From the NCBI GenBank assembly GCA_043812975.1, contig JBDRLP010000019.1, forward strand, positions 1 to 23,215: 23,215 nt of DNA. The letters are read 5' to 3'. This DNA comes from Candidatus Iainarchaeum sp. Lineage in GTDB: Archaea; Iainarchaeota; Iainarchaeia; Iainarchaeales; Iainarchaeaceae. A program made the position numbers and the translations under genes. Shown one piece after another: positions 4,455 through 17,285 of the stretch (positions are counted from its first letter, which is position 1; every line of letters starts with the position of its first letter). The notes below the pieces were generated by a model. The model made no database searches. It had not been told where the DNA came from and worked only from the letters and a program-made list of their open reading frames with translations.

Positions 4455-5657
4455 TTAATTTTTCCTCAAGCGTTTGAGGACTGTGTTTACAACTTTATTA
4501 TTGTAACCTTTATCCTGCATAACATGAATCAAATCTTCCTTAGAATAATCATGAGTTTTATCTTTCAGCAAATCAACAAGCTTCTCAACCTGACTTGTTT
4601 CACTCATAGTTAAAACCCCAGAAATTACGGGCTTAGACTGAACTTGTTTTTCGACTGATTTTTCAGCTTGTCTTTGAGCAACAGCTCTTCTTCGATTAAA
4701 TCCCTGACTACTCTGACTTGAAATATTCTGAGATGGAAGAGATACTTCACTAGGTTGTGCTTTTGGTTCACTGGAAGGAACCTGATTTTTTAATTGAGCG
4801 TAAATGCTTGGGTTAAGGAACTGTTGCATTACGCTAAATAAAAGCTGAAAAACAAGATTAAACACTACTGAAATTAAAATACCTATACTAGCAAGACTTA
4901 GAATAGTGAATAAAAATTCAATCCCGAACTGGATGATTATTAACCCAATGGCAATTACAAAAAATATAATACTAACAATAACATTTGCCACAAAAATTTC
5001 CACAACCTTACCAGTACTCAATTCCCAGGATTCCCTTACAGAATCTATAATACCCTGATCTTTCTGGAGATAAATAGCGTTTCCTAATGAAAGCCTTATT
5101 GATGTGTAAATCATAACAAAAATATAAGGAAAAAACATTAGCAGAGCCAAAAGTGACAAAAGTGCAATAGGCGGGAACAAAAATGCTCCTATCAGGCTAA
5201 AGAATCCGAGCAAAAACATTACAATAAAATAAATCCTGAACTTGTCATGATACCAGCTAGTGAGAATCACAAAACAAGTATACAATGACAGGAGAAATAA
5301 TGTTTTGAGAAATTTAACAAAACCAAAAGGAGCAGTCTCAAAACCAACTAACTGTAATGCCCTGACCTCAATTTTATAAAGCTGAAAAACAAGGTACAAC
5401 ATAAAAAGTATGAACAGTGGTACCAGAACAACAAAAATAATCAGAACAGCGGAACCCAACTGCGCTATAGACTGAGGATTTACAACATTAGTTATATCAG
5501 TGGTTCCTGCCAAAAGCAAAATAAGAGAAATAACAACAACAGCTGTCACCACAGTAAACAATACCGTAAGCCCAAGAATAACAAAGAAACGTTTAAAGGT
5601 TTCACGATCCTTAAACCAGAGAGTCAAAACATTCAAAATAATTTTTTCATAATCCAT
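4455..5657 (-). CDS. Polytopic membrane protein (DUF975 / GDPD-membrane-domain-like) with Q/S-rich linker and small C-terminal helical domain
   Basis: Multiple TM segments and the motif IRLSL...IYL...GIIDSVRESWELSTGK, typical of this membrane-domain group. ATG at 5657 (MDYEK) preferred over TTG at 5675. Confidence 0.8.
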   Translation of the reverse strand: MDYEKIILNVLTLWFKDRETFKRFFVILGLTVLFTVVTAVVVISLILLLAGTTDITNVVNPQSIAQLGSAVLIIFVVLVPLFILFMLYLVFQLYKIEVRALQLVGFETAPFGFVKFLKTLFLLSLYTCFVILTSWYHDKFRIYFIVMFLLGFFSLIGAFLFPPIALLSLLALLMFFPYIFVMIYTSIRLSLGNAIYLQKDQGIIDSVRESWELSTGKVVEIFVANVIVSIIFFVIAIGLIIIQFGIEFLFTILSLASIGILISVVFNLVFQLLFSVMQQFLNPSIYAQLKNQVPSSEPKAQPSEVSLPSQNISSQSSQGFNRRRAVAQRQAEKSVEKQVQSKPVISGVLTMSETSQVEKLVDLLKDKTHDYSKEDLIHVMQDKGYNNKVVNTVLKRLRKN

Positions 5658-5802
5658 TAAAACCGAAAATAACAAGGATTTAGAGCTATTTAAAGATTGC
5701 TGTTGAACTTAATTTGCTTTGAATTGTAAAGAATAGTTATTTTAAAACAAAAAAAACAATAGTGCTTTTGATTAAAAAAAGAATTGACCTAAACAACAAG
5801 AC

Positions 5803-5891
5803 TTATTTTTCTTTTTTGTTGCTTTTTCTGTAAATGTAAAACCCAGCAATTAATGCTACAATAAAAACAATTAAATACTCTTAGCAGGCAT
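5803..5891 (-). pseudogene. Frameshifted or remnant single-TM micro-ORF (MPAK / EYLIVFIVALIAGFYIYRKSNKKEK*)
   Basis: 5880-5803 translates to a hydrophobic helix plus basic tail and stop, but is preceded by an in-frame TAA. An ATG at 5891 would join this frame with one extra nucleotide. Confidence 0.4.
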
Positions 5892-5971
5892 ATTTTTAGT
5901 ACTGGAAAAGTAAATTTCTGGATTTTTCTAGAGGTCTTATTCTCAAATCTTTTCTCAATTTTCAATTCTTA

Positions 5972-5990
5972 TAATAATGTTTAAATACTT
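5972..5990 (+). promoter_or_regulatory. Putative pyrG promoter (TTTAAATA 5980-5987) giving a leader of about 68 nt
   Basis: TATA consensus; GGGGA RBS-like sequence at 6066-6070 before the ATG at 6076. Confidence 0.5.
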
Positions 5991-6075
5991 CCTCAAACCT
6001 AACATTAATCTGTTTTTAGAATTTTTAAAAAAAATTTTAGATGAAATTTTGCATTAGACATGAGTGGGGATTTAA

Positions 6076-7779
6076 ATGGATGAAAAGTTTTTAGGAAAAG
6101 TGGCAGATAAAAGTAGTGAAGAACAATATTCTCCATTCCCAGAAGGATACAAAATCGGAAAAACCAAATATGTTATTATTACAGGTTCTGTAATCAGCGG
6201 AATTGGAAAAGGAATTTTCTCATCAGCACTTGGAAAAACACTTCAGGACAGAGGATTAAAAGTTGAGCCGATAAAAGTTGAAGCATACCTTAATGTCGAC
6301 TCAGGAACACTAAGCCCTTACAGACACGGAGAAGTTTTTGTGTTAGATGACGGCACAGAAACTGACATGGATTTAGGAAGCTACGAAAGATTTTTAGATT
6401 TAGAACTTACAAAAGAAAACTTTATTACTCCTGGACAGATTTACCAAAAGTTAATTGAAAAAGAACGAAAAGGAGATTATAATGGCAGAGATGTGCAATA
6501 CATTCCGCATGTTACTGGCGAAACAAAATATGTACTAAGAAATCTTGCAATAAAAAGCAAAGCAGATATTGTTCTTGTAGAAATCGGCGGAACTGTAGGG
6601 GATTTTGAAAATTTATTTGCAATGGAAAGTACAAGACAGATGATTTATGAAGAAGGCCCGGAAAATGTGTGCCTTGTAAACCTTACTTACATTGTTGAAC
6701 CTAATCATTTAGGAGAATTCAAAAGCAAAGCAGCACAACTAGGGTTAAGAGAACTAATGAGACTTGGATTGCAGCCTGACTTAATTGTATGCAGAAGCCA
6801 ACACCCGGTTACTGAAACAATAAAGGAAAAAATTTCTATGAACGCTAATGTCCCTATTGAAAAAGTATTCAATACATTTGATGTCGACAACATTTACGAA
6901 TTACCCTTATTCTTCAGAGAACAGGGAATTGACCAAGCAATAATGGAAATTCTGCAATGGGAAAAAAAATACAAAGCGAATGGAAGTCATAGTTTAAAAG
7001 AATGGACTGAAAAAAATGTTGTGGAAAAGAAAGGCGAAATTACGATAGGGATTGCCGGAAAATACACTGGAACAAGTGACACTTACATTAGTATTGTAAA
7101 AGCATTAGAACATTGTTCAACCAAATTGAAAACTAATATTAAAATTAAGTGGATTGAAACCACGAGTATTGAAAAAGGAAAAACCAAAGTAGAAGAAGAA
7201 ATGAAAGGAGTCAACGGAGTAATTATCCCAGGAGGCTTTGGAACTCGCGGTATTGAAGGAAAAATATCAGTTGCAAAGTATGTTCGTGAAAATAATGTAC
7301 CTTTCCTGGGGATTTGTTATGGTTTCCAGATGGCAGTTGTTGAATTCGCAAGGAATGTCTGCGGAATAAAAGATGCCTCCACTGAAGAAGTAAAAAAAGA
7401 TGAGGATACTAACGTTATCTGTATACTTCCTGAACAGGAAGAAGTAGAGGGTTTGGGCGGAACACTAAGATTAGGTGGTTTTGATATTAAGCTGAAAAAA
7501 GACACCAAAGCATGGGAACTTTACGGAAAAAAGGATTCTGTGAGGGAAAGATTCAGACACAGGTTTAATGTTAATACAAAATTCATTGATAAATTAGAGG
7601 GATGCGGTTTAATATTTTCAGGAATGGCTCCGAAAAAAAGAATCATGCAGATTCTAGAACTTAAGGATCATCCGTTCTTTATCGGAACCCAGTATCACGC
7701 TGAATTTACTTCAAGGCCTCTGAACCCTAACCCTATTTACTTTGGTTTAGTGAAAGCTGCTATTGAAAATAAGAAATAA
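6076..7779 (+). CDS. pyrG: CTP synthase
   Basis: KYVIITGSVISGIGKG, YLNVDSGTLSPYRHGEVFV, DMDLGSYERF, EIGGTVGD, PGGFG, nucleophile GICYG, ERFRHR, QYHAEF. Confidence 0.98.
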   Translation: MDEKFLGKVADKSSEEQYSPFPEGYKIGKTKYVIITGSVISGIGKGIFSSALGKTLQDRGLKVEPIKVEAYLNVDSGTLSPYRHGEVFVLDDGTETDMDLGSYERFLDLELTKENFITPGQIYQKLIEKERKGDYNGRDVQYIPHVTGETKYVLRNLAIKSKADIVLVEIGGTVGDFENLFAMESTRQMIYEEGPENVCLVNLTYIVEPNHLGEFKSKAAQLGLRELMRLGLQPDLIVCRSQHPVTETIKEKISMNANVPIEKVFNTFDVDNIYELPLFFREQGIDQAIMEILQWEKKYKANGSHSLKEWTEKNVVEKKGEITIGIAGKYTGTSDTYISIVKALEHCSTKLKTNIKIKWIETTSIEKGKTKVEEEMKGVNGVIIPGGFGTRGIEGKISVAKYVRENNVPFLGICYGFQMAVVEFARNVCGIKDASTEEVKKDEDTNVICILPEQEEVEGLGGTLRLGGFDIKLKKDTKAWELYGKKDSVRERFRHRFNVNTKFIDKLEGCGLIFSGMAPKKRIMQILELKDHPFFIGTQYHAEFTSRPLNPNPIYFGLVKAAIENKK

Positions 7780-7843: not shown

Positions 7844-9157
7844 ATGACTGTTTTAAAGAGAAGCAGTTCTGGAATGGAACTGGAACTTCAGGTTTTAGAT
7901 GAAAGGGGAAAAATTTCTAATAAATCAAAAGAGTTAATAGCAGAAGTAAAAAAAAGAAATAAAAAAATCGATTTAGTTCACGAAGCAACTAAAAATACTG
8001 TTGAATTAAAAAGCCTGCCAAAAGTTAGACTAAAAGATTCTTTTCCAAGATTGTTTGAGGATCTTGAAACAACAATAGAAGCCGCAGATTCTCAGGGGCT
8101 GAAAATATTTGGTTTAGGAACTTATCCTGGAAGCTTTAATGTTGAACAAGTTCCAAAAAAAAGATATAAGCTTCAAACAGCAATATTCAACAAAAAAGAT
8201 ATATTTGCTTGGGGTCACTGCGCAGGATTCCACTACCATTATACACTTCCATGGGGAGTTTTTGACTCTAAAAAAAAGTTTCTAAAAAAACTAGTAAACT
8301 CCAAAACTAAACAAAGTCTTTTGGACAGTCATAACTTGTTAGTGGCAATTGATCCGGCAACAAGCTGTTTAATGCAATCAAGTCCTTTCATAAACGGGAA
8401 TTTTCTTGCGAAGGATTCCAGAATGCTGCAAATAAGGAATCCTGATGAATTGGATTACCAAAAAGGGTTATTTACAGAACTTGAAGAATTTGGAGAACTG
8501 CCAGATTACATGTGGACCATGCAGGATTTGAGGTATCGACTTCTTTCAATGGATAAAAAAATGAAAAACATAATAAAGAAAACAAGATACAAAGATGAAG
8601 TTAAGAAAAAACAACTTCTGGATTTTGTATGGACTGTAATAAAGATTAACAAACTTGGTACTTTAGAATACAGAGGCTGTGACATGAACCATCCAAAATA
8701 TTTTGCAGGAACCGCAATACTACTAAAATCAATTCAGCGAGTTATTCAACAGGAATTCTACAAGGTTGAAGTTTCAGATGTTGGAATAAAAGAACCATTC
8801 AAAATAGAAGGGGAAACAATTTACATCCCCCCTGAAAGTTATGTGAAACTAAAATTGCAACCTGCAAGTGCATACAAAGGATTTGAGGATAAAGAAGTAT
8901 ATACCTATGTGAAAAGGTTTTTCAATTTTGCAAAAAAACATGCTAACAAGGATTACCTGAAACTCCTTACCCCGTTAAAAAATTTGATTGAAAGAAAAGA
9001 AACTGTTTCGGATATACTCATAAAAAGAGTGAAAAAGAAAGGATATTCATTAAATGATTACATACCTCAAAATATCTGTGCAGAAATAGCATTAAAGCAT
9101 TCCGCGCAGTTTGTAAAGGAAACTTATAGGATAAAAGACAGGATACCGAGTGATTAA
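7844..9157 (+). CDS. Glutamate-cysteine ligase family 2 (GCS2/YbdK-like) carboxylate-amine ligase
   Basis: Motifs GMELELQ, VELKS, GFHYH, SSPF..G....DSR and GTLEYRGCD. Own TATA-like TTTATAAT at 7800-7807. Confidence 0.85.
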   Translation: MTVLKRSSSGMELELQVLDERGKISNKSKELIAEVKKRNKKIDLVHEATKNTVELKSLPKVRLKDSFPRLFEDLETTIEAADSQGLKIFGLGTYPGSFNVEQVPKKRYKLQTAIFNKKDIFAWGHCAGFHYHYTLPWGVFDSKKKFLKKLVNSKTKQSLLDSHNLLVAIDPATSCLMQSSPFINGNFLAKDSRMLQIRNPDELDYQKGLFTELEEFGELPDYMWTMQDLRYRLLSMDKKMKNIIKKTRYKDEVKKKQLLDFVWTVIKINKLGTLEYRGCDMNHPKYFAGTAILLKSIQRVIQQEFYKVEVSDVGIKEPFKIEGETIYIPPESYVKLKLQPASAYKGFEDKEVYTYVKRFFNFAKKHANKDYLKLLTPLKNLIERKETVSDILIKRVKKKGYSLNDYIPQNICAEIALKHSAQFVKETYRIKDRIPSD

Positions 9158-9159
9158 AA

Positions 9160-10074
9160 ATGAAAAAAATTGGTTTATGGATTCCATCACGAAAAAATTA
9201 TTCTTCAGTTTCAATTGAACAACCAGGCTACTTCATCCAAAACTTCAAAGAAGACATAATGAAAATTTTAAAAAATCAAAAAAATGTTGAAATAATTGAG
9301 GATCTTGATTTTAGAAAAGCAGTTGTAAAAAACAGCGATGTTTTTCTCAGGGATTTTTGTTTCTCTGAATTAGATGTTTTCTTTTGGTTAGGGGAAATAG
9401 ACCGAAGTCCAACAAGTTATCATATAGAAATACTTGAAACAATAGCTAAAAAAACAAAAGTAATAAACAACCCTAGTGCACTGAAAATTGGTTTGGATAA
9501 GTATCTCTCACAATTAACTTTAAAACAAAATAATATCCCTGTTCCCGAATTTATGCTTGCTTCCCCAGATAATTTGGAAGAAATTAGAAAACAAGTTGAA
9601 AAGAAAACCTTTATTATAAAACCAAGATTTGGGAGTTTTGGTTCAGGCATAATGAAGATTGCTGATTATCAAAACCTTGTAGATATAGTGGATTATTCAG
9701 AACAAAAAAGCCATTTTCTCGAGGAGTTCATAGAATTTGATTTTGAAAACTGGATAGGAATCAATGTAATCGGAGGAAAAATCATTTACGGTTATGGAAA
9801 AGAGAAATCAAAAATTTCAGGCTGGAAAGTTTTTGACAGAGAAAGAAAAGGAGGAAAAATGATTCTTAAAAAACCTTCAAAAGAACAGGAAAAAATAGCT
9901 TTACAGGTTGCAAAGGCAACAGGCCTTGATTTTTTCGGCGTTGACATCATTAAATCCAAACAAGGTCAAAACTACGCCATAGACGTAAACACATTTCCAG
10001 GATTATACCCTGAAATGTTTGCAGAAGCAAAAGTGAATGGCGCTGAACATCTAGTAAAATTAATTTTAAAGTAA
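9160..10074 (+). CDS. RimK-like ATP-grasp peptide/amide ligase, divergent active site
   Basis: INNPSAL...DKY, IPVPE, IIKPRFGSFGSGI, EEFI, GVDII, IDVNTFPG. Starts 2 nt after the GCS2 stop, consistent with an operon. Confidence 0.88.
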   Translation: MKKIGLWIPSRKNYSSVSIEQPGYFIQNFKEDIMKILKNQKNVEIIEDLDFRKAVVKNSDVFLRDFCFSELDVFFWLGEIDRSPTSYHIEILETIAKKTKVINNPSALKIGLDKYLSQLTLKQNNIPVPEFMLASPDNLEEIRKQVEKKTFIIKPRFGSFGSGIMKIADYQNLVDIVDYSEQKSHFLEEFIEFDFENWIGINVIGGKIIYGYGKEKSKISGWKVFDRERKGGKMILKKPSKEQEKIALQVAKATGLDFFGVDIIKSKQGQNYAIDVNTFPGLYPEMFAEAKVNGAEHLVKLILK

Positions 10075-10650
10075 TTATTTTGCTTTTTTGAACGGATCAA
10101 ATTCTTTGATATACTGAATCGTACTTTTTTCTTCGGAAATATCCTCTTCCTCACTAACTTTTCTAACATCCTCAATTGAATAAAACACTTTTGAATTAAT
10201 ACCATTTACAATTTTTATTACTTTTTTTATTTTCTTTCTATCCGTCAACAAGGTTATTATTTTTGCAGTATCTCTTTTGTAATCTGCAGTTACAACAGTT
10301 AAACGATAGCCCTCCTTCTCCAATGCATCCATTACCGCAATATAATTTGTCCTAATAACAAACCGAATCCTTGCTTTTCCAAGAGAAATTTTTTCTTCTA
10401 ACCATATTCCTGAAAACGTTCCAGCAGCAAATCCAAGCCCATAAACAATAATCAACCAAGTATTGGTTATGTTCAGTATTATCTGCGAAATTGCTAACAA
10501 CCAGATTACTGATTCAAAAAAACCAACAATAGGAGCATAATATTTGAAACCTTTTGCAATAAAAATCACTCTTAAAGTACCCATGCTCACGTCTACTATT
10601 CTTGCAAGGAATATGAACAATGGCAATGCAACCCAAGAAAAAAAATCCAT
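10075..10650 (-). CDS. UPF0316 (DUF5698/DUF2179) membrane protein
   Basis: FIFLARIVDVSMGTLR...GFFESVIW...YGLGFAAGTFSG; three TM helices plus a soluble C-terminal domain; GGAG RBS. Confidence 0.88.
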   Translation of the reverse strand: MDFFSWVALPLFIFLARIVDVSMGTLRVIFIAKGFKYYAPIVGFFESVIWLLAISQIILNITNTWLIIVYGLGFAAGTFSGIWLEEKISLGKARIRFVIRTNYIAVMDALEKEGYRLTVVTADYKRDTAKIITLLTDRKKIKKVIKIVNGINSKVFYSIEDVRKVSEEEDISEEKSTIQYIKEFDPFKKAK

Positions 10651-10683
10651 TATAATCTCCTAAAAAAAGAAAAGGAAAAAAAA

Positions 10684-11634
10684 TTATTCATCTTCTTCCG
10701 ATTCTTTGAAAGCCCACTTGTTTCCGCCTGAAAGAATTTCTTCAGCAACTTCATTGTCTTCTTTAGAAAGAGGCAAACCATGCTCATCTTTTTCATTTGA
10801 ATAAATTGAATCAAGTCTTGGCAATCTGTCCTTTGCAATAAATGCAACAATTCCAAGGACAACAATAATTACGATAAATGCAATCGGCAAAGCAAGGCCT
10901 TTTGCCAAATTAAACATGCCTGTAATTGGAGAATTCTTTTGAGCTTCTTCATCTGCAAGGCGAGCTGCTTCTTCATCTGCAAGTTTTTGAGATTCTATTC
11001 CTTCAAGAGAAGCAATTCTTTGTTCAAGAGAACTTGTTGTTGAACTTAAAGAACTTGATGTTGAATCAACCTTGGATGAAACTGAAGAAACATCATTGCT
11101 CAATGAAGAAAGACTTGAATCAAGGGAATTAGCAAGAGCTTCAGTTGTGTTTAATTTATCCCAGAAACCCTGAAAGTCAGCTTCAATGTTTTTTAATTTC
11201 TGATCAAACTCATCCAAAGGAGCCAGTTTTTCCTCAACTCTTGCATCAACGCTTGCCAGAATATCGGATTCATTAGGAAGATTGATTGCAGTAATTTCTT
11301 TCGAATCAGAACCGCCTGAGGAGTCGGCAATTATTGTGTGGATTCCTTGACTTAAGCCAACGTGATAAACAACAAGATCGTCATTGAACATAAAAGCATT
11401 GGAAACTTTAGGAGAAAATGCTTCATAAACAACTGCACCGCTTGAGTAAACCTCAACTATTTTTGTACCATCTATTTCCACAGTGGCTGTCGAGCCGGAA
11501 CCAATATTAGCACTAAAACCCCAGGAAACATCTTTTGGTATTGTTGATGGGGCATCAATAGAAACCGCACCGGCTACGCCGGCAAGAGAAGCAAGAATTA
11601 ACAAAATTAATCCAAAAATTAAACTCTTTTTCAT
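10684..11634 (-). CDS. Cell-surface protein: signal peptide, beta-rich domain, Ser-rich coiled coil, C-terminal TM anchor, acidic tail
   Basis: MKKSLIFGLILLILASLAGVAGA signal; heptad-like S-rich stretch; TM LALPIAFIVIIVVLGIVAFIA; TTTATTAA 29 nt upstream. Confidence 0.85.
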   Translation of the reverse strand: MKKSLIFGLILLILASLAGVAGAVSIDAPSTIPKDVSWGFSANIGSGSTATVEIDGTKIVEVYSSGAVVYEAFSPKVSNAFMFNDDLVVYHVGLSQGIHTIIADSSGGSDSKEITAINLPNESDILASVDARVEEKLAPLDEFDQKLKNIEADFQGFWDKLNTTEALANSLDSSLSSLSNDVSSVSSKVDSTSSSLSSTTSSLEQRIASLEGIESQKLADEEAARLADEEAQKNSPITGMFNLAKGLALPIAFIVIIVVLGIVAFIAKDRLPRLDSIYSNEKDEHGLPLSKEDNEVAEEILSGGNKWAFKESEEDE

Positions 11635-11643
11635 GTATAGAAT

Positions 11644-11692
11644 AATTCACGGTTATTAATAAACTTTTTCCAATTCACGGGTGTTTTTAACA
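11644..11692. promoter_or_regulatory. Divergent leaderless promoters with two direct repeats of AATTCACGG
   Basis: Repeats at 11644-11652 and 11672-11680; TATA boxes at 11663-11656 (minus) and about 11685-11692 (plus). Confidence 0.55.
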
Positions 11693-11714
11693 AGAACTAT
11701 TCTTTTTTTACTTC

Positions 11715-12866
11715 ATGCTTGAACGAGTAAAGCTTCCGGACAAGGAAATCATTCTTTTGGGTACTGCGCATATTTCCCAGGATAGTGTGAATGATGTCAG
11801 AGAAGCCATTGAAAAAGAAAAACCTGATGTTGTCGGAGTAGAGCTTGATTTACAAAGGTTCAGGCAGCTTAAACAGGGAAATAAATGGCAGAATACCAAT
11901 ATCGGAAAAATAATTGGTTCAGGGCAAACTTACTTGTTTCTTCTTACGTTATTGCTTTCAAATATTCAGAGAAGTCTGGGGCAGAAAATAGGAATGAAAC
12001 CCGGAATGGAAATGATTGAAGCAATTAAAATTGCAGAAGAAAAAAAACTCCCGATTGTTCTTCTGGATAGAGAAGTTAACATTACTCTGAAAAGAGCAAT
12101 GCAAAAAATGACTTTCGTGGAAAAGCTCAAACTATTTTTTTCAATTGTTTCAGGTTTTTTCGGAGAAGATGATATTAAAATTACCCGTAAAAGCATTGAG
12201 AAATTAAAACAGAAAGATGTTATGACACAGCTGATGCAGCAGCTTTCAAAAGAAATGCCTTCAATCAAAGAAGTTCTTGTTGATGAAAGGGACGCATTTA
12301 TTGCAAACAGTATTACAAAAAGCCCAGGGAAAAAAATTCTTGCGGTTGTTGGAGCAGGGCATTTAGCAGGGATAAAAAAATTATTAGGAAAACCTGTTAA
12401 TATTGCGGAAATTTCAAAAGTTAAAAAAGGAAAAAGTTATGTGAAAATGCTCGCGTTCATAATCCCGTTACTTTTTGTAGCATCAATTGTGTACTTGTTT
12501 TTTACCAAAGGAGCTGATGTATCATTAACAGCAGTTCTGTACTGGTTCCTTGCAAACGGAATACTTTCATCATTAGGAGTACTGATTGCAAGAGGTCATC
12601 CTTTTTCAGTTTTAACTGCATTTATTGCCGCACCACTTACAAGTTTACATCCTTTTTTAGCAGCAGGGTGGGTCGCTGGTTTTGTGGAAGCAAAAATAAA
12701 AAACCCAAAAGTAAAAGATTTTGAGAACCTGAAGAACCTGAATTCAGTAGGGGATTTTACCAAAAACCAAGTAACAAGAATTTTACTTGTGGTTGCACTT
12801 GCTAACCTTGGATCTACGTTAGGAACAATAGTTGCGTTTCCGCTTATAGCTTCGCTTTTAGGGTGA
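11715..12866 (+). CDS. traB: TraB/PrgY (GumN/Tiki superfamily) protein with C-terminal TM region
   Basis: IILLGTAHIS, VGVELD...R, KPGMEM, LLDREVNITLKR, LVDERD, AVVGAGH, and the TM region AAPLTSLHP. Confidence 0.92.
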   Translation: MLERVKLPDKEIILLGTAHISQDSVNDVREAIEKEKPDVVGVELDLQRFRQLKQGNKWQNTNIGKIIGSGQTYLFLLTLLLSNIQRSLGQKIGMKPGMEMIEAIKIAEEKKLPIVLLDREVNITLKRAMQKMTFVEKLKLFFSIVSGFFGEDDIKITRKSIEKLKQKDVMTQLMQQLSKEMPSIKEVLVDERDAFIANSITKSPGKKILAVVGAGHLAGIKKLLGKPVNIAEISKVKKGKSYVKMLAFIIPLLFVASIVYLFFTKGADVSLTAVLYWFLANGILSSLGVLIARGHPFSVLTAFIAAPLTSLHPFLAAGWVAGFVEAKIKNPKVKDFENLKNLNSVGDFTKNQVTRILLVVALANLGSTLGTIVAFPLIASLLG

Positions 12867-12946
12867 GGTTTTTGATCAAACTTTTTTTCTAAAAAGTTTG
12901 TGGAACAATAGTTGCGTTTCCGCTGATTGCATCCTTACTTGGATGA
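12822..12946 (+). repeat. Direct duplication of the traB 3' end (12822-12866 and 12902-12946); attL/attR-like scar
   Basis: 23-nt identical core ggaacaatagttgcgtttccgct. Both copies encode GTIVAFPLIASLLG*, with 9 differences, all synonymous. Confidence 0.9.
12871..12900. repeat. Palindromic spacer: tttgatcaaa palindrome overlapping a 10-bp hairpin caaacttttt-ttct-aaaaagtttg
   Basis: Perfect arms 12877-12886 and 12891-12900. Lies between convergent genes, so it may also act as a terminator. Confidence 0.75.
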
Positions 12947-13573
12947 CTTCTTCAAATAAGGAAGAACATTTCCTTTTTGCTCAGCTTCTTCAATTAGTTT
13001 TTTTGCGAAAAAAATTCTTTGCGCGGAACCAATGAAAGCGATTATTGCGATTAACCACAATGAAGCTTCAAGCACAGGAAACCCAAAATAATTAAATGAA
13101 AAAATTGACAGGAAAATTCCAGCAAGCAAGAGAAGCATTCTTTCGGAGTGCTCTCCCAATCCAGGCCAGTCGCGGTTGTCAGTAATAATTACAAGAGCAA
13201 CTCTTGGTTTTGCATAACTATTCAGCAGGGAAAACGCAAGTGCAAAAATAGCTGCTATCGGGTGCAGGAAAGCAACCGAAATGAACAGGATTATCTCCAC
13301 GACCTTGTCAATCATTGTTTCGAAATAGTTTCCGAACAAAGAATCCTTTTTCTGCAAACGTGCTACAGAACCATCAAACATATCAATTGAAATCGCAATT
13401 AGAGTGAGCACAAATGCTTCTGCAAACTTTTCCTGCAGAATAAAAAAACCAGCATAAAGCGCAAATAACGGACCTAAAAGAGTAAACAGAGTTGGAGGAA
13501 AGCCTATTGCAGCAAAAGGTCTTGCAACAGCCTCGGTAAAGGCTTTAGTGTGCGGTCTTAATGATCCAAGCAT
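12935..13573 (-). CDS. CDP-alcohol phosphatidyltransferase family protein (archaetidylinositol-phosphate-synthase/PgsA-like)
   Basis: DMFDGSVAR-x8-GNYFETMID matches DxxDGxxAR...GxxxDxxxD with one D-to-E change; multiple TM helices; SYAK.R and GEHSER motifs. Confidence 0.88.
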   Translation of the reverse strand: MLGSLRPHTKAFTEAVARPFAAIGFPPTLFTLLGPLFALYAGFFILQEKFAEAFVLTLIAISIDMFDGSVARLQKKDSLFGNYFETMIDKVVEIILFISVAFLHPIAAIFALAFSLLNSYAKPRVALVIITDNRDWPGLGEHSERMLLLLAGIFLSIFSFNYFGFPVLEASLWLIAIIAFIGSAQRIFFAKKLIEEAEQKGNVLPYLKKSSK

Positions 13574-13656
13574 AGAAATTACCCTATATATTATTACATT
13601 TATATAATAATGAACTATATTAAAAGAAATATAATACTAATAAATATGGGGTTAAC

Positions 13657-14871
13657 ATGATTTCAGAAAAAATTCGCGAAGATTTTCCAGTTCTGCAGAA
13701 TAACAAAGGACTTGTTTACTTTGATAATGCAGCAACATCTTTGAAACCGATTCAGGTTATTGAAGCAGTGAACCATTATTACAAAAACCTAGGGGCCAAT
13801 GTTCACAGAGGAAACCACCATCTCTCTCAGCAGACCACGCAGCTTTATGAAGAATCAAGAAAAGAAGTTGCAAAATTCATCGGTGCAAAGGAAGAAGAAT
13901 TAGCTTTCACAAGAAATGCAACCGAAAGCATTAATGCGATTTGTGTTGGATTGGAAAGGCAAGGTTATTTTTCAAAAGGAGATGAAATAATTATTTCTGC
14001 TCTGGAACACCACGCAAACATTGTGCCTTGGCAGGAACTCTGTAAAAGAACAGGAGCTGTTCTGAAAATTGCAGAACTTAATGATGATTTTACGATTAAT
14101 ATGCAGGATTTAGAAGAAAAAGTAACTGGAAAAACAAAACTTGTTTCAGTAGCACACGCTTCTAATACGGTTGCAACTATTTTGCCAGTAAAAGAAATCG
14201 GGAAAATTGCTCATGATAATGGTGCTTTATTTTTGGTTGATGCAGCACAGAGCGTTCCGCATTTTGATGTGAACGCAAAAAAGATTGATGCTGATTTTTT
14301 GGCAATAAGTTCTCATAAAATGTTAGGTCCAACAGGGGTCGGAGCTTTATATGGAAAAAAAGATTTATTAGAGAAAATGCCTCCGTATAATTACGGTGGA
14401 AGCATGATTAGCAAAGTTTCTTACGAAAAAACTGAGTGGGCTCCTTTGCCTGAAAAGTTTGAAGCAGGCACAATGCCAATCGCAGAAGTAATTGGTTTTG
14501 GCGAAGCTGTTAAGTACTTGAAAAAAATTGGAATGGAAAATGTTCACAATCATGAAAAGAAATTACTCTCACATGCTCTGAAAAAAATGCAGGAAATTGA
14601 GAGAATAAAACTATTCTGTCCGCAGGATGTAGAAAAACAAGGAGGCATCATTTTATTTGAGGTTAAGGGAATTGATGCTGTTGATTTGGGAGTAGCCCTT
14701 GATGAGAGTAAAAACATAGCAACCAGAAGCGGAATGCACTGCGCAGAACCAATAGTGAGCAGCTTAAATCCTAAAGGTTTAGGTAGAGCTAGCTTTTATT
14801 TGTATAATACTATTGATGAAATCGATACATTTGTTGATGAGGTCACCGCCATCTCACATGCATTCAAGTAA
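13657..14871 (+). CDS. sufS: Cysteine desulfurase, SufS (group II) type
   Basis: YFDNAATS, NVHRG, LEHHANIVPW, DAAQS, PLP lysine in SSHKMLGPTG, FEAGT, catalytic Cys in RSGMHCA, RASFYLYNT. Confidence 0.93.
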   Translation: MISEKIREDFPVLQNNKGLVYFDNAATSLKPIQVIEAVNHYYKNLGANVHRGNHHLSQQTTQLYEESRKEVAKFIGAKEEELAFTRNATESINAICVGLERQGYFSKGDEIIISALEHHANIVPWQELCKRTGAVLKIAELNDDFTINMQDLEEKVTGKTKLVSVAHASNTVATILPVKEIGKIAHDNGALFLVDAAQSVPHFDVNAKKIDADFLAISSHKMLGPTGVGALYGKKDLLEKMPPYNYGGSMISKVSYEKTEWAPLPEKFEAGTMPIAEVIGFGEAVKYLKKIGMENVHNHEKKLLSHALKKMQEIERIKLFCPQDVEKQGGIILFEVKGIDAVDLGVALDESKNIATRSGMHCAEPIVSSLNPKGLGRASFYLYNTIDEIDTFVDEVTAISHAFK

Positions 14872-14929
14872 AACGCATTCAAGCATAAAAATTCTTTATT
14901 CAAGTAAAGTTGAAGCGAGCAAAAACGCC

Positions 14930-14948
14930 GAGAAACCTTTTTAAATAA
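14930..14948 (+). promoter_or_regulatory. Promoter of the A-type ATP synthase operon
   Basis: gagaaacc-TTTTTAAATA BRE/TATA; GGTGA RBS at 15003-15007 before the first gene. Confidence 0.6.
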
Positions 14949-15011
14949 TTCTTAAGAGCAGTTCTTTATAACAGGAAAAATAAGAAAAGTCCTAGCAAAT
15001 TTGGTGAGTAA

Positions 15012-15335
15012 ATGGCTAAGAATGATTTGAAAATATTAACTGAATTGAAACAATTCGAACAAAAAAACATAAAAAATTTGGAAAAAGCTCAGAAGGAATC
15101 TGAGAAAAAAATCTTATCAGCACAAAAAGAAGCTGAAGAAAAAATCAAGAAAGCCAGAGAAGATTCTGAAAAACTTATTAGTGAAGAAGTTAAAGAAGCT
15201 GAGAAAAAAGCTAAAGCTGAATCAGCAGCTTCATTCACAGAATACAGACAGCTCGAAGAGAAACACAAATCTTATTTTTCTAAGAACAAATCAAAAGCTG
15301 TTGACGCGGTTTTCGAAGAACTGCTAAAAGGATGA
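15012..15335 (+). CDS. atpH: A/V-type ATP synthase subunit H (peripheral stalk)
   Basis: 107-aa E/K/A-rich coiled coil in the first position of the operon, before subunit I. Confidence 0.85.
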   Translation: MAKNDLKILTELKQFEQKNIKNLEKAQKESEKKILSAQKEAEEKIKKAREDSEKLISEEVKEAEKKAKAESAASFTEYRQLEEKHKSYFSKNKSKAVDAVFEELLKG

Positions 15336-15341
15336 AAAAAA

Positions 15342-17285
15342 ATGTTTAGAAGTGCAACAATATTTCACGCAAAAGCAATTGTGCCAAAAAGCAAAGCAAA
15401 CGAACTCATTCTAAAATTACACGAAACCGGCATAAGTGAACTTAAAAAGACTGATACAGAACATAAAGAGGAATTTATAATCAAGGAAGAAGAATCTCTT
15501 AACACATCAAATGTCAGAGAAACACAAGCTAAGCTTAATGATTTACTTACAAAAATTGATTCTTACAGGGAAATTGTGACAGCAGATAATATGTTGAAGC
15601 AATTATTTTTCCCAAGTCCGCCAGAAAAATACAAAATTGACTTGTTATCAAATGAAGAAATTGTGAATGAGGTTAATGAAAATCTTGAAAAAATAAAACC
15701 AAAAATAGACGCAAAACTTTTAGAATTAGATGAAACCAAAAGCAAAATTGATAACAATAATTATTTGATTTCAAATTTAGGATTGCTTCCGGAACAACAG
15801 ACTAATCTTTTTGAATCAACAGAAAATCTTAGTGTTCAGATTGGAATAATTAACCCAAAATCAATTGAGTTGTTTAAAGAAAAATTAAAGAAAACAGTTG
15901 TTTCAGTAAAGGAAAAAAATGAAACACAGGCTTTTGTGTATGTTGTTTCAAGCACAGAAAATAAAGGAGAAACAGATAAAGTACTGCACGAAGTTGGTTT
16001 TGAAAGTATTAAAGTTCCTTTTGAGAATAAAGCACCAAAAAAAATTATTGAAAACTTAAAAAAAGAAAACAAAACTCTTGAAGCAAAAACCAAAACAATT
16101 GAGCAGGAAGTTAAGGAAATCACAAGAACCAATGCAAAAAGACTTGATATTTTAACAGAAGAACTTGATATAGCAATCCAGAGGATTGATGCATACAACC
16201 AGATACAAGATTTTGGATCAACAGCAATAATCGAAGCATGGGTTCCTGAAAAAAACTTTTCTGAATTCAAAGAAGTGCTTAAGGAAAAAGCAGGGAATTT
16301 TTATTTAATGAGCAAAGAAAGAGAAGATGCTCCAACACTCTTTAACCACTCCAAACTCATTGAACCGTTTGAAATTATTACTGAACTTTACTCAGTGCCA
16401 AAATACAAAGAATTTGATCCAACGCCGATAGTGGCTATTTCGTTTGCAGTGTTTTTTGGATATATGCTGACAGACTTTGTATACGGAGTAGTGTTATTTT
16501 TATTAGCATTTTTCATGTACAATGGATTAGGTAAATACGAACCAGGATTAAGGAAATTCTCGGCTTTACTGATGATTGGAGGTATTTCAACGGCTTTACT
16601 AGGAGCATTTTTCAAATCTTATTTAGGGGACTTTTTCCCCAGAATAGGCATTGAATTGCCGGGGGTGCTGGACCCTTTAGCACAAGTTTTGGAAATTATT
16701 ATTTTATCACTCGCAATTGCATCAGTGCATCTATTCATTGGATTAGTAATTGGTTATTATGAAAATGCACGAAAAGGAAAAATGATAGATGCATTAGGAT
16801 TGCAGGGAGTATGGTTGTTCTTATTAATTGGTGGAATTTCTGTTTTAATTGGTGAAGGCATATTCCAAATGATTGGATTTGCACTGGTTGGATTAGCAGT
16901 AATAACCCAACTTGCTTACAACTACATTCAAAACGGACCGATTATTTCAGTTCTTTCAATTTTCAATATTTCAGGATTCTTAGGAGATGTTTTTTCTTAT
17001 GCAAGGCTAACAGCATTAGCAATTGGCACTGCCGGAATCGCGTTGGCAGTGAACTTCATGGCCTTAATGGTTGTAGACATGGTACCAGTTGTGGGAATTG
17101 TCTTTGGAGCAATGATCTTCATAGGCGGCCACATCTTTAACATGGTCATGAACGGAATGGGTGCATTCATACATGCACTCAGATTACACTTCCTTGAGTT
17201 TTTCTCCAAGTTTTATGACGGAGGAGGAAAACTTTACAAGCCATTTTACGCTTTAAGGAAAAAAAACTATACGGAGGGAAAATAA
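15342..17285 (+). CDS. atpI: A/V-type ATP synthase subunit I (a)
   Basis: AWVP, DAPT, YSVPKYKEFDPT, FFGYMLTD..YG, essential Arg in DVFSYARL, HALRLHFLEFFSKFY.GGG. Confidence 0.97.
   Translation: MFRSATIFHAKAIVPKSKANELILKLHETGISELKKTDTEHKEEFIIKEEESLNTSNVRETQAKLNDLLTKIDSYREIVTADNMLKQLFFPSPPEKYKIDLLSNEEIVNEVNENLEKIKPKIDAKLLELDETKSKIDNNNYLISNLGLLPEQQTNLFESTENLSVQIGIINPKSIELFKEKLKKTVVSVKEKNETQAFVYVVSSTENKGETDKVLHEVGFESIKVPFENKAPKKIIENLKKENKTLEAKTKTIEQEVKEITRTNAKRLDILTEELDIAIQRIDAYNQIQDFGSTAIIEAWVPEKNFSEFKEVLKEKAGNFYLMSKEREDAPTLFNHSKLIEPFEIITELYSVPKYKEFDPTPIVAISFAVFFGYMLTDFVYGVVLFLLAFFMYNGLGKYEPGLRKFSALLMIGGISTALLGAFFKSYLGDFFPRIGIELPGVLDPLAQVLEIIILSLAIASVHLFIGLVIGYYENARKGKMIDALGLQGVWLFLLIGGISVLIGEGIFQMIGFALVGLAVITQLAYNYIQNGPIISVLSIFNISGFLGDVFSYARLTALAIGTAGIALAVNFMALMVVDMVPVVGIVFGAMIFIGGHIFNMVMNGMGAFIHALRLHFLEFFSKFYDGGGKLYKPFYALRKKNYTEGK

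Follow-up and report, generated by a model that had tools for sequence, protein, structure and literature searches.

A doubled traB 3' end around a short palindromic cassette in a Candidatus Iainarchaeum genome

The doubled end of traB

The window analysed here is the whole stretch of 23,215 nt that makes up positions 1 to 23,215 of contig JBDRLP010000019.1 (assembly GCA_043812975.1, Candidatus Iainarchaeum sp.; this genome is referred to as G000). Within it, a gene of the TraB/PrgY/GumN family (traB) converges on a CDP-alcohol phosphatidyltransferase gene, and the 3' end of traB is present twice, on either side of a short palindrome. The features of the locus are as follows.

11715..12866, + strand: traB, an ORF of 383 aa (TraB/PrgY/GumN family, PF01963, E = 3.1e-38) that ends in copy 1
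12822..12866, + strand: copy 1, the translated final 14 codons and stop codon of traB (45 nt)
12822-12844, + strand: identical core, the first 23 nt of copy 1
last 22 nt of copy 1, + strand: recoded tail
12867..12901, no strand assigned: inserted cassette of 35 nt, a T run followed by a palindrome
12877-12886 and 12891-12900: arms of the 10-bp cassette stem, with a 4-nt loop at 12887-12890
12902..12946, + strand: copy 2, the displaced, untranslated traB end
12935..13573, - strand: CDP-alcohol phosphatidyltransferase gene, an ORF convergent with traB (PF01066, E = 1.5e-9)

The two copies are 45 nt each, lie 80 nt apart from start to start and are identical at 36 of 45 positions. A first-pass annotation, made from the letters alone, had described a synonymously recoded duplicate of the traB end with an identical core, and our comparison bears this out. 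The 23 core nucleotides are the same at both junctions, and the nine differences that follow, at repeat positions 24-42, affect every one of the seven remaining sense codons. All nine are synonymous, and both copies encode the same 14 residues and stop. When nine substitutions were placed at random, the peptide and its stop were retained in none of 100,000 simulated trials, and the confinement of all nine differences to the last 22 of 45 positions has a probability of 0.00056. With up to two mismatches allowed, the 23-nt core has only two sites in the 1.24-Mb genome, namely copies 1 and 2.

Copy 2 begins 1 nt after the cassette, lies in a frame other than that of traB and has no start codon. 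Its final 12 nt are the complement of the last four codons, stop included, of the convergent phosphatidyltransferase gene, an overlap that had been noted before and that the ORFs confirm. As this gene extends into copy 2, it is three codons longer here than in relatives. The 35 nt between the copies contain no ORF; their stem is perfect over 10 bp, and oligo-T runs are found on both strands.

The tails of the two copies give mixed signals as to which is native. In copy 1, the last 24 nt hold seven changes that are unique to this genome, compared with 82 in the 1149 nt of the gene, and against a genome of the same genus (G001) this tail is the most divergent seven-codon window of traB (1 of 336 windows). 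Six of the seven codons differ between the copy 1 tails of the two genomes, where about 30% would be expected. The translated tail of G000 therefore looks foreign or unusually changed, and its excess of lineage-specific changes suggests later allelic recombination. The copy 2 tail of G000 is native-like, as two of six comparable codons differ, by eye, from the single-copy tail of a further relative (G003). This agrees with the earlier proposal that copy 2 is the original host end; in G001, however, it is copy 1 that is nearer to the G003 tail (by eye, and at few sites). Copy 2 retains the full peptide in both genomes. Its tails differ between them at six positions, all of them synonymous or stop-to-stop, and only 30-44 of 100,000 random trials were equally silent.

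The locus in relatives and metagenomes

Orthologues of traB were found in 55 of 61 related genomes. G001, whose TraB is 89% identical, has the same architecture with the same two junctions, and its cassette is interrupted by a further 54 nt of hairpins, which makes the spacer longer. In G004, G005, G014 and most of the family the site is empty, with a single-copy traB end directly adjoining the phosphatidyltransferase gene. Such empty sites had been predicted, as had versions of the locus with a large integrase-bearing insert between the cores. The latter were not found: of the traB loci of 28 further relatives in which the tail could be read, not one holds a large insert flanked by cores, and the 23-nt core had no match in viral contigs. 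Nor, among the loci compared, does any relative have traB followed by the cassette without the duplication.

The converse arrangement exists in G002, where the traB end is duplicated in tandem over 27/28 nt, the copies lying 1 nt apart and the cassette being absent. One indel and one substitution have already damaged the second copy. This means that the duplication may precede the cassette or be independent of it. The junction between traB and the phosphatidyltransferase gene is also a hot spot: G001, G003, G010 and G015 each have a different gene inserted there.

A metagenome scan with TraB returned 18 loci, of which the three close ones were 99.98-100% identical to the loci of G001, G014 and G010; as it yielded no new close relatives, sampling of this lineage is thin. 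Contigs from groundwater metagenome runs hold 10-21% of the sampled words of the window and match parts of 12300-13500 at 100%. None of these contigs covers the duplication, and the cassette (12869-12900) is covered on its own, by unrelated contigs. The run search returned no RNA run that holds the window.

Two families of small elements

The spacer at 12867-12901 corresponds exactly to a single intact T-rich palindromic cassette, a sequence with a dispersed distribution. Among 196 genomes of the order, 11 have exact or near-exact copies, at 20 places in all; for the phylum the figures are 96 places in 29 of 215 genomes, and genome_contigs has no fewer than 123 such loci. Reversed-pattern controls gave no matches. 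Across the 215 genomes the number per genome ranges from 0 to 16, and exact-pattern copies reach 16 in G182 and 14 in G073; G000 has one close copy and ten variants. The cassette is also found in bacterial genomes, and viral contigs gave no match to it. Rfam holds no family for the spacer of G000 or G001 and, when 20 cassette loci were searched, identified tRNAs only. One flanking ORF was extracted for each of 116 cassette loci, and a Pfam search of 64 of these returned only unrelated housekeeping families, with no consistent neighbour such as a transposase.

Of 93 cassette contexts, 17 have a tRNA 5' end no more than 2 nt from the end of the cassette, and further loci show the same arrangement. 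Four of the 93 contexts lie inside tRNA introns, where the 54-nt hairpin companion of the cassette is found as well. Other copies form arrays or are flanked by duplications of other targets. These include a 21-nt direct repeat of a tRNA-Leu 3' end, a 46-nt repeat inside an ORF of G054 that is read through in frame, and repeats of 27 and 31 nt at further targets. In a tRNA-Arg case, the downstream copy gives a worse tRNA, with one mismatch and one wobble. The protein region around the in-frame cassette of G054 is too variable to align for an empty-site comparison. In G193, a second protein gene has its 3' end in three stacked copies, all of which run to the stop codon and show synonymous differences alone; its sister G188 has the cassette after a stop codon without duplication.

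At another gene junction, empty in G003 and G002, the cassette occurs in G004 together with a duplicated ribosome-site/start region, and at the same junction G000 and G001 carry a GC-rich element with a duplication of its own. The two families thus inserted independently at one junction in different species. In the examples read, the gap between the cassette and the downstream repeat copy is 0-1 nt. Several independent duplications have their right edge precisely at a stop codon or a tRNA end, a coincidence that survivorship alone explains poorly.

The GC-rich, structured family has 35 matches in G000 and no counterpart in Rfam. Direct repeats of 14-49 nt flank 16 of the 35 elements, seven of these repeats being perfect, and in 15 of the 16 pairs the downstream repeat starts 0-3 nt after the element. 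Single-copy empty sites are present in the sister genomes G001 and G005, which shows that insertion itself makes the duplication in this family. In six repeat pairs at gene 3' ends we counted, by eye, about 15 synonymous or stop-to-stop differences against two non-synonymous ones. More generally, among 1819 ORFs of 100 aa or longer, 11 have their last seven residues and stop repeated within 300 nt downstream, and none upstream, in a peptide-based scan that by design favours synonymous differences. At two loci of G000 the duplicated gene ends are separated by spacers of only 7-8 nt.

Two known kinds of mobile sequence were considered and rejected. REP/BIME sequences mobilised by a RAYT transposase would call for a Y1 domain (PF01797), which has no match in G000 (about 94.5% complete). 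The same genome has no match to a reverse transcriptase (RVT_1), and the nine mismatches between copies 1 and 2, read by eye, involve all four bases rather than being adenine-specific, which argues against a diversity-generating retroelement.

Origin of the doubled end

We favour insertion of the cassette at the stop codon of traB, accompanied by a target duplication of 45 nt, the cassette belonging to a class of small non-coding elements that this lineage carries, and give this joint reading a probability of roughly 0.6. The 35-bp T-rich palindrome would have inserted directly behind the stop codon and brought with it a direct duplication of the final 14 codons and stop (45 bp). The upstream copy would then complete traB, and the displaced downstream copy would still supply the phosphatidyltransferase gene with its 3' end. 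Two genes that once abutted or overlapped would now be parted, and traB uncoupled from its convergent neighbour, by a hairpin with oligo-T on both strands that may plausibly act as a two-way terminator. By analogy, the traB event probably arose like the other duplication-making insertions, and the class as a whole would create long target duplications of variable length (14-49 nt). As a duplication at a gene end keeps both genes intact, such elements would survive mainly at extreme gene ends and junctions.

The synonymous recoding is not fully explained by insertion and duplication. A target duplication is identical when made, and a dead copy would be expected to decay at all codon positions, so the conserved copy 2 counts against the reading that we prefer. 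Further points against it are the position of the right edge in the independent cases, the single close copy of the cassette in G000, the lack of any transposase, reverse transcriptase or other enzyme linked to it, and the cassette-free duplication in G002. Two additions might account for the synonymous-only differences. Recombination with a diverged allele of traB may later have replaced one of the tails, or the insertion may have spread between lineages by recombination at the core; under either, each copy would have been a working gene end until recently.

Could the doubled end instead be the junction of two diverged traB alleles, formed by homology-facilitated illegitimate recombination without any mobility of an element? 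A relative's traB and cassette DNA would have recombined homologously within traB, with illegitimate joining of its far end just upstream of the resident tail, so that the native end came to lie behind a foreign one. The foreign-looking copy 1 tail and native-like copy 2 tail of G000 fit this scenario, as do the hot-spot character of the junction and the pair formed by G188 (cassette without duplication) and its sister G193 (stacked ends). It also gives a natural reason for the similarity to end at the stop codon, where constraint ends. Yet we consider it unlikely: G000 and G001 share an identical illegitimate junction although their copy 1 tails differ at far more codons than expected, the intermediate with traB and cassette but no duplication is absent from the relatives compared, and the seven perfect duplications around GC-rich elements, with their empty sites, point to duplication at insertion.

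The first-pass annotation had seen traB as the attB site of a provirus or integrative element. Here, a classical tyrosine-integrase element with an attP made of the 23-nt core and a replacement traB tail would have integrated into traB and later lost its interior, perhaps when cassette copies at its two ends recombined, to leave attL and attR 80 nt apart. The order of core, replacement end and displaced native end is what such an element leaves, the copy 1 tail of G000 looks foreign, and an element-borne replacement end predicts a repeat edge exactly at the stop codon. The genome also has four Phage_integrase matches and at least one ordinary integrated element, beside tRNA-Thr. However, those matches lie on contigs C20, C26 and C27 and none on C19, and the ordinary tRNA-Thr element has an att repeat of 14 nt and lacks the cassette at either end. 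The spacer is one intact canonical cassette rather than a random remnant, and the same cassette is flanked elsewhere by duplications of many unrelated targets, which is impossible with a fixed attP. Taken with the lack of core-flanked large inserts at the 28 readable loci and of the core in viral contigs, and with duplication on insertion in the GC-rich family, this makes an integrase origin quite unlikely. The reading as a collapsed provirus is thus only partly supported: an insertion with its own working gene end does seem to have displaced the resident end, but the evidence runs against its having been carried by an integrase element. The annotation's other suggestion, a minimal non-autonomous element mobilised in trans, comes close to the insertion that we favour.

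The G002 tandem duplication, which lacks a cassette and has a damaged second copy, and the two G000 loci with spacers of 7-8 nt raise the prospect that slippage made the duplication first, that it was kept for uncoupling overlapping convergent genes, and that the cassette later entered the only neutral spot. Two independent events would hardly produce the tight spacing seen after cassettes and GC-rich elements, and empty and occupied sites differ by element and repeat together; this order of events is very unlikely. Selection on both copies as translated parts of an RNA device, with the unit from copy 1 to copy 2 acting as a bulge-helix-bulge (BHB) intron or alternative 3' end, would explain why both keep their coding sense in two species, and the cassette and its 54-nt companion do occur in tRNA introns. 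It is nevertheless highly improbable. A scan for the 3-4-3 arrangement (helix, 3-nt bulge, 4-bp helix, 3-nt bulge, helix) found no motif at a splice distance of 80 (G000) or 134 (G001), by which we rejected an archaeal BHB intron; the unit folds only weakly better than shuffled sequences (z of -1.7 to -3.2), which gives little support to a strongly structured RNA; and the downstream tRNA-Arg copy makes a worse tRNA. The contig belongs to a metagenome-assembled genome, and an assembler might have joined the traB ends of two strains into one. G001, another species that was assembled independently, shows these junctions too, along with a longer spacer and tails of its own, and many analogous structures exist across this and other genomes, so that an artefact has next to no likelihood.

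Going beyond the preferred insertion, we offer a broader and distinctly more tentative proposal. The AT-rich cassette and the GC-rich element could represent two families of undescribed, tiny, non-coding mobile elements of DPANN-like archaea that insert at the ends of transcription units, the cassette being common, nearly letter for letter, to methanogens and some anaerobic bacteria. Their duplications of 14-49 nt would keep flanking genes whole and uncouple overlapping ones, and spread by recombination at the duplicated core would leave displaced ends recoded rather than decayed. The cassette may also double as a fixed-distance promoter or terminator for leaderless tRNAs. Should this class prove real, it would illustrate how insertions can be tolerated by very compact genomes whose genes overlap, in that a long target duplication restores the two gene ends and places between them a hairpin with T runs. 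Such elements would also be a simple source of recoded pseudo-ends downstream of genes, which can be mistaken for att sites or assembly errors, of promoter and terminator turnover at tRNA genes, and of some large tRNA introns in DPANN archaea.

Comparison with known systems

Replacement gene ends carried by prophages are known from icd of E. coli, the target of e14 and phage 21. As at traB, a functional and synonymously diverged end lies upstream, the native end is displaced downstream, and an identical core marks where the versions meet. There, however, a prophage of several kilobases with its integrase lies between the copies and attP is fixed, whereas only 35 nt separate the traB copies, the cassette's targets are unrelated and no integrase is linked. 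The IS1634 group consists of autonomous DDE transposons with inverted ends and long, variable direct repeats. Its target duplications resemble those described here in being tens of bases long and variable in length, but no DDE gene or inverted ends were seen at the cassette. Rickettsia palindromic elements are inserted in frame in genes, as are the G054 cassette and its 46-nt duplication, which are read in frame within an ORF; the traB cassette, in contrast, follows a stop codon and is untranslated.

The sections of PMC11602168 available to us describe MITEs and REP-like palindromes that, like the cassette, are short, non-coding, palindromic, intergenic and patchy in distribution and lack a transposase of their own. 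They are also multi-copy, as the cassette is in G182 and G073, while G000 has its one close copy and ten variants. The MITE target duplications given there measure 2-10 bp, compared with 45 nt at traB and a variable 14-49 nt in the class, and the cassette has no separate terminal inverted repeats around an internal segment; by duplication length we rejected an assignment to MITEs. Duplications so much longer may point to an undescribed insertion mechanism. REP-like repeats differ further in that no transposase of the Y1/RAYT type was found in G000. In the literature, the cassette string matched a single, unrelated paper, the cassette is absent from 'Satellites in the prokaryote world', and the accessible parts of the works on mobile promoters, MITEs and archaeal introns contain no description of such an element class.

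In the portion of PMC10100707 that we could draw on, leaderless tRNA genes of Nanoarchaeum equitans have a promoter at a fixed distance, with a spacing of 26-27 nt, and in 17 of 93 contexts the upstream T run of the cassette is placed similarly, about 24-31 nt ahead of the tRNA. In these contexts the T/A-rich box of the cassette keeps a constant spacing to tRNA position +1. The likeness to the promoters described in that portion is one of spacing only, and the cassette is found in other settings too: behind stop codons, within introns, in arrays and in bacterial genomes.

In the atp6 gene of Allomyces, in fungal mitochondria, a mobile endonuclease ORF brings a foreign C-terminal segment and leaves the resident one as a downstream relic. 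Unlike this system, the traB insert has no ORF and no linked endonuclease. The resemblance lies in the arrangement, with a foreign-looking, recoded end upstream and the resident end downstream, and in the proposed spread by recombination between alleles.

The recoded traB end and its junction in relatives

The genome that carries the window (G000) comprises 1.24 Mb in 68 contigs, with a completeness of 94.5%, and the window is its complete contig C19. The features around the duplicated traB end are as follows.

12822-12866: copy 1 (45 nt), the 3' end of a 383-aa TraB/PrgY/GumN ORF
12867-12901: cassette (35 nt), a T-rich palindromic spacer
12902-12946: copy 2 (45 nt), in another frame and without a start codon
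12935-12946: final 12 nt of the convergent CDP-alcohol phosphatidyltransferase ORF, shared with copy 2

The copies are direct repeats with starts 80 nt apart. The first-pass annotation's description of a recoded duplicate of the traB 3' end was confirmed: the copies are identical at 36 of 45 positions, differ only synonymously and encode the same peptide of 14 residues followed by a stop. The core (the first 23 nt) is identical at 23/23 positions, and all nine differences are confined to the last 22 nt of the repeat (P = 0.00056 for their clustering), altering each of the seven non-core sense codons. In 100,000 trials of nine random substitutions, the peptide and stop were never retained. The core does not occur elsewhere in the G000 genome. 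The phosphatidyltransferase ORF lacks its usual stop and is three codons longer than in relatives, extending into copy 2, where the extension is codon-for-codon antiparallel to the traB frame. The cassette consists of a T run and a perfect palindrome with a 10-bp stem, with T runs on both strands.

TraB was detected in 55 of 61 related genomes, and traB 3' ends were inspected at 30 loci (the one in the window and 29 others, one of which ends before the tail, the part of the repeat that follows the core). Among these, only G001, from the same genus and with a TraB that is 89% identical, has the arrangement of the window: copy 1, the same 17 nt past the stop, 54 additional nt, the same 18 nt and copy 2. 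The additional nucleotides form two hairpins that split the cassette (L004 2652-2740) within its T run, and they match sequence elsewhere in the family at 77-80%, also within a 135-nt tRNA-Leu intron. G001 belongs to another species, was assembled independently and has tails of its own, so strain mixing during assembly is a very unlikely source of the duplication. Contigs from the metagenome runs listed match parts of the window, and none spans both copies. The usual gene order in the family is traB convergent with the phosphatidyltransferase gene. G004, G005, G014 and others have a single traB end, a few to ~35 nt from the phosphatidyltransferase end, and thus provide the empty sites that the first-pass annotation had expected. 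G002 (L347, G002:C62 ~500-600) carries a 27/28-nt tandem duplication of the traB end without a cassette; its copies are 1 nt apart, and the second has one indel and one substitution. A metagenome scan with TraB yielded no new close relatives.

This junction is unstable, a recombination hot spot with a different inserted gene in each of four relatives. As identified by eye, these are a 137-aa ORF beyond copy 2 in G001 (L004), a toxin-antitoxin-like, HicA/HicB-like pair in G003 (L005), a 242-aa ORF in G010 (L008) and a 197-aa ORF in G015 (L011).

Two families of small elements with long target duplications

The cassette is widespread. At a tolerance of three mismatches, 11 of the 196 genomes of the order contain it, at 20 places in all. 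When the 215 genomes of the phylum were searched for the exact pattern, with the loop left variable, 29 of them had it, at 96 places, most often G182 (16) and G073 (14), and reversed-pattern controls gave no matches in the phylum genomes. When one genome per species was scanned, at least 123 loci carried it, with at least 136 matches (L103-L225). Among the matches listed, the record titles name methanogens, several DPANN lineages and a thaumarchaeote, and on the bacterial side Clostridia, Cloacimonadota and Desulfobacterota. In these same matches the pattern is near-identical across archaea and bacteria, methanogen cassettes often form tandem arrays (up to five units in Methanosarcina), and a GC-rich hairpin comes after the cassette in bacterial records. 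Pfam searches of 64 ORFs flanking cassettes showed no recurrent neighbour, Rfam holds no family for the cassette, and literature string searches found no description of it.

Flanking repeats were sought for 122 cassette copies among the matches listed in the one-genome-per-species scan. A significant direct repeat joined the flanks of 30 of these, many being arrays. In several others, one cassette had a copy of the local sequence on each side: a tRNA-Leu 3' end (21 nt, one mismatch), a promoter region (27 nt, perfect), the first 31 nt of a gene, and a ribosome site with the start region. In G054 (L308, G054:C3) a lysine/glutamate-rich ORF continues in frame through a cassette that has a perfect flanking repeat of 46 nt. 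In G193:C13 (L286 / L320), a protein gene has three stacked copies of its 3' end (the last 8-13 codons) that differ only synonymously, each with a stop codon as its precise end. The members of the first pair enclose the cassette and have three synonymous differences in 39 nt; the third copy has three recoded codons and adjoins the native T run and a convergent gene. In the sister genome G188, the cassette lies past the stop without a duplication. The cassette and a further hairpin lie between the stacked copies, and the gene appears, by eye, to be proteasome-assembly-chaperone-like.

A second family emerged from a scan of G000 for downstream copies of gene ends (last seven residues and stop, within 300 nt, ORFs of at least 100 aa), which by design favours synonymous differences. 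Such a copy followed 11 of 1819 ORFs, and the same search on the upstream side gave none. A GC-rich structured element is common to six of the 11 spacers; its stems covary, as judged by eye from the alignment, and Rfam has no family for it. A profile built from those six spacers had 35 matches in G000, 25 of them at E ≤0.005; the six match by construction. The element measures ~50-110 nt and is present on C1, C21, C27, C64, C23, C40 and other contigs (e.g., L350, L355-L358). Direct repeats of 14-49 nt, which duplicate the ends or starts of genes or the end of a tRNA, flank 16 of the 35 matches, and seven of these 16 are perfect. The downstream repeat copy starts 0-3 nt past the element in 15 of the 16, and the upstream copy terminates 0-34 nt ahead of it. 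The element lies immediately past stop codons (13 cases), a few codons inside genes whose ribosome site and start are duplicated, at the 3' end of a tRNA-Arg, or immediately ahead of tRNAs.

Empty sites were also found for this family. At two loci, G001 and G005 each have a single gene end without the element, and G000 has copy, element (~92 nt) and copy, with repeats of ~44 and ~42 nt. In G003 the same stop codon is followed by an independent insertion, whose repeat is shorter. The comparison of empty and occupied sites therefore shows that insertion of these small elements generates long target duplications of variable length. One overlapping-gene junction was reached independently by both families: G000 (C57 ~13104-13203) and G001 (C1; L378, L376) hold the GC-rich element with its own duplication, G004 (G004:C57, L237) holds the AT-rich cassette alongside a duplication of the start region, and the site is unoccupied in G003 and G002. 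At gene ends and junctions the duplication restores both genes, and it is there that such insertions are retained.

By its architecture, the traB feature is a member of this class, as the cassette lies directly past the stop, copy 2 follows 1 nt past the cassette, the repeat measures 45 nt and relatives have empty sites. A small palindromic cassette would have inserted at the traB stop with a 45-nt target duplication, such that traB would terminate in copy 1 and copy 2 would still provide the end of the convergent phosphatidyltransferase gene. Both transcripts could terminate at the hairpin with its T runs on either strand.

Alternative origins and the synonymous tails

The first-pass annotation had taken traB for an attB site and the 80-bp unit for a collapsed provirus or a minimal element mobilised in trans. 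A collapsed provirus is not supported, given the absence of a large insert between two cores at any of the relatives' readable traB loci, the absence of the core from viral contigs and the presence of the cassette at many different targets. The variety of duplicated targets flanking the cassette is beyond what a fixed attP can yield. Classical integration is also unlikely: the four integrase matches of G000 all lie off contig C19, and an ordinary integrated element at tRNA-Thr (G000:C26; ~6.2 kb, with a boundary at 9102 formed by 14 nt repeated from the tRNA-Thr 3' end) has no cassette at its ends. In the regions 5364-6929 and 9102-15463 of that contig, tRNA-Tyr and tRNA-Thr each have an integrase gene immediately downstream. 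Mobilisation of the IS200/IS605 or RAYT type was set aside, with no Y1 transposase found in G000, as was a diversity-generating retroelement, with no reverse transcriptase and mismatches that are not adenine-specific. A BHB scan, weak folds and the tRNA-Arg case led to the rejection of an intron.

The tails are harder to explain, and three observations on them do not fit simple decay. Between G000 and G001, 103 of 342 same-residue traB codons differ; as this is only 30%, synonymous sites are not saturated. The copy 1 tails differ at six of seven codons, the most divergent seven-codon window of traB (1 of 336 windows). Seven changes unique to G000 fall in the last 24 nt of traB, versus 82 in 1149 nt overall, and G001 has no unique changes in those 24 nt. 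By eye, the G000 copy 2 tail and the G001 copy 1 tail are each near the single tail of G003 (two of six comparable codons differing), and the G000 copy 1 tail is nearest to that of G014, from a different genus (4 nt differences). The copy 2 tails of G000 and G001 have six differences, all synonymous or stop-to-stop, as matched in only 30-44 of 100,000 random trials, a pattern not expected of a dead relic from the common ancestor. The tails are most simply explained if, in each genome, at least one of them still functioned as a gene end until recently. Either the insertion (or the tail beside it) could have passed between diverged lineages by recombination at the identical core, or frequent conversion between the copies could have exposed copy 2 to selection. 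The recoding is the weakest part of our explanation, and here the att-like logic of the first-pass annotation keeps its force. The feature itself is real, occurs in two species and marks an insertion, but that insertion was no provirus. It fits best within a genome-wide class of this lineage, as a small palindromic cassette whose insertion brought a long target duplication.

Cassettes beside tRNA genes

In the phylum, 17 of 93 distinct cassette contexts have a cassette end at most 2 nt from a tRNA 5' end, with two more within 3 nt. Four of the 93 lie within tRNA introns, and the remainder include sites before ribosome-binding sites and arrays. The neighbouring tRNAs are Ala, Leu, Val, Ser and Cys (loci L244-L307; G180, G182, G188, G192, G073 and others). 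The tRNA-Tyr on G000:C26 has a 120-nt intron containing a cassette variant. Composites akin to the split cassette of G001 lie in a 135-nt tRNA-Leu intron (L037) and a 240-nt tRNA-Ser intron (L043), and another follows tRNA-Pro (L038), ahead of a degenerate copy of that tRNA's 3' end.

At L240-L242 and L313 (G160, G165, G167), the cassette is directly followed by an apparent tRNA 3' half only (T arm and acceptor strand), where ARAGORN called no tRNA. These may be split tRNA genes with their own putative promoter. In the excerpted text of PMC10100707, the leaderless tRNAs of Nanoarchaeum equitans have promoters at a fixed placement, which the spacing between cassette and tRNA appears to resemble, as a likeness of spacing only.
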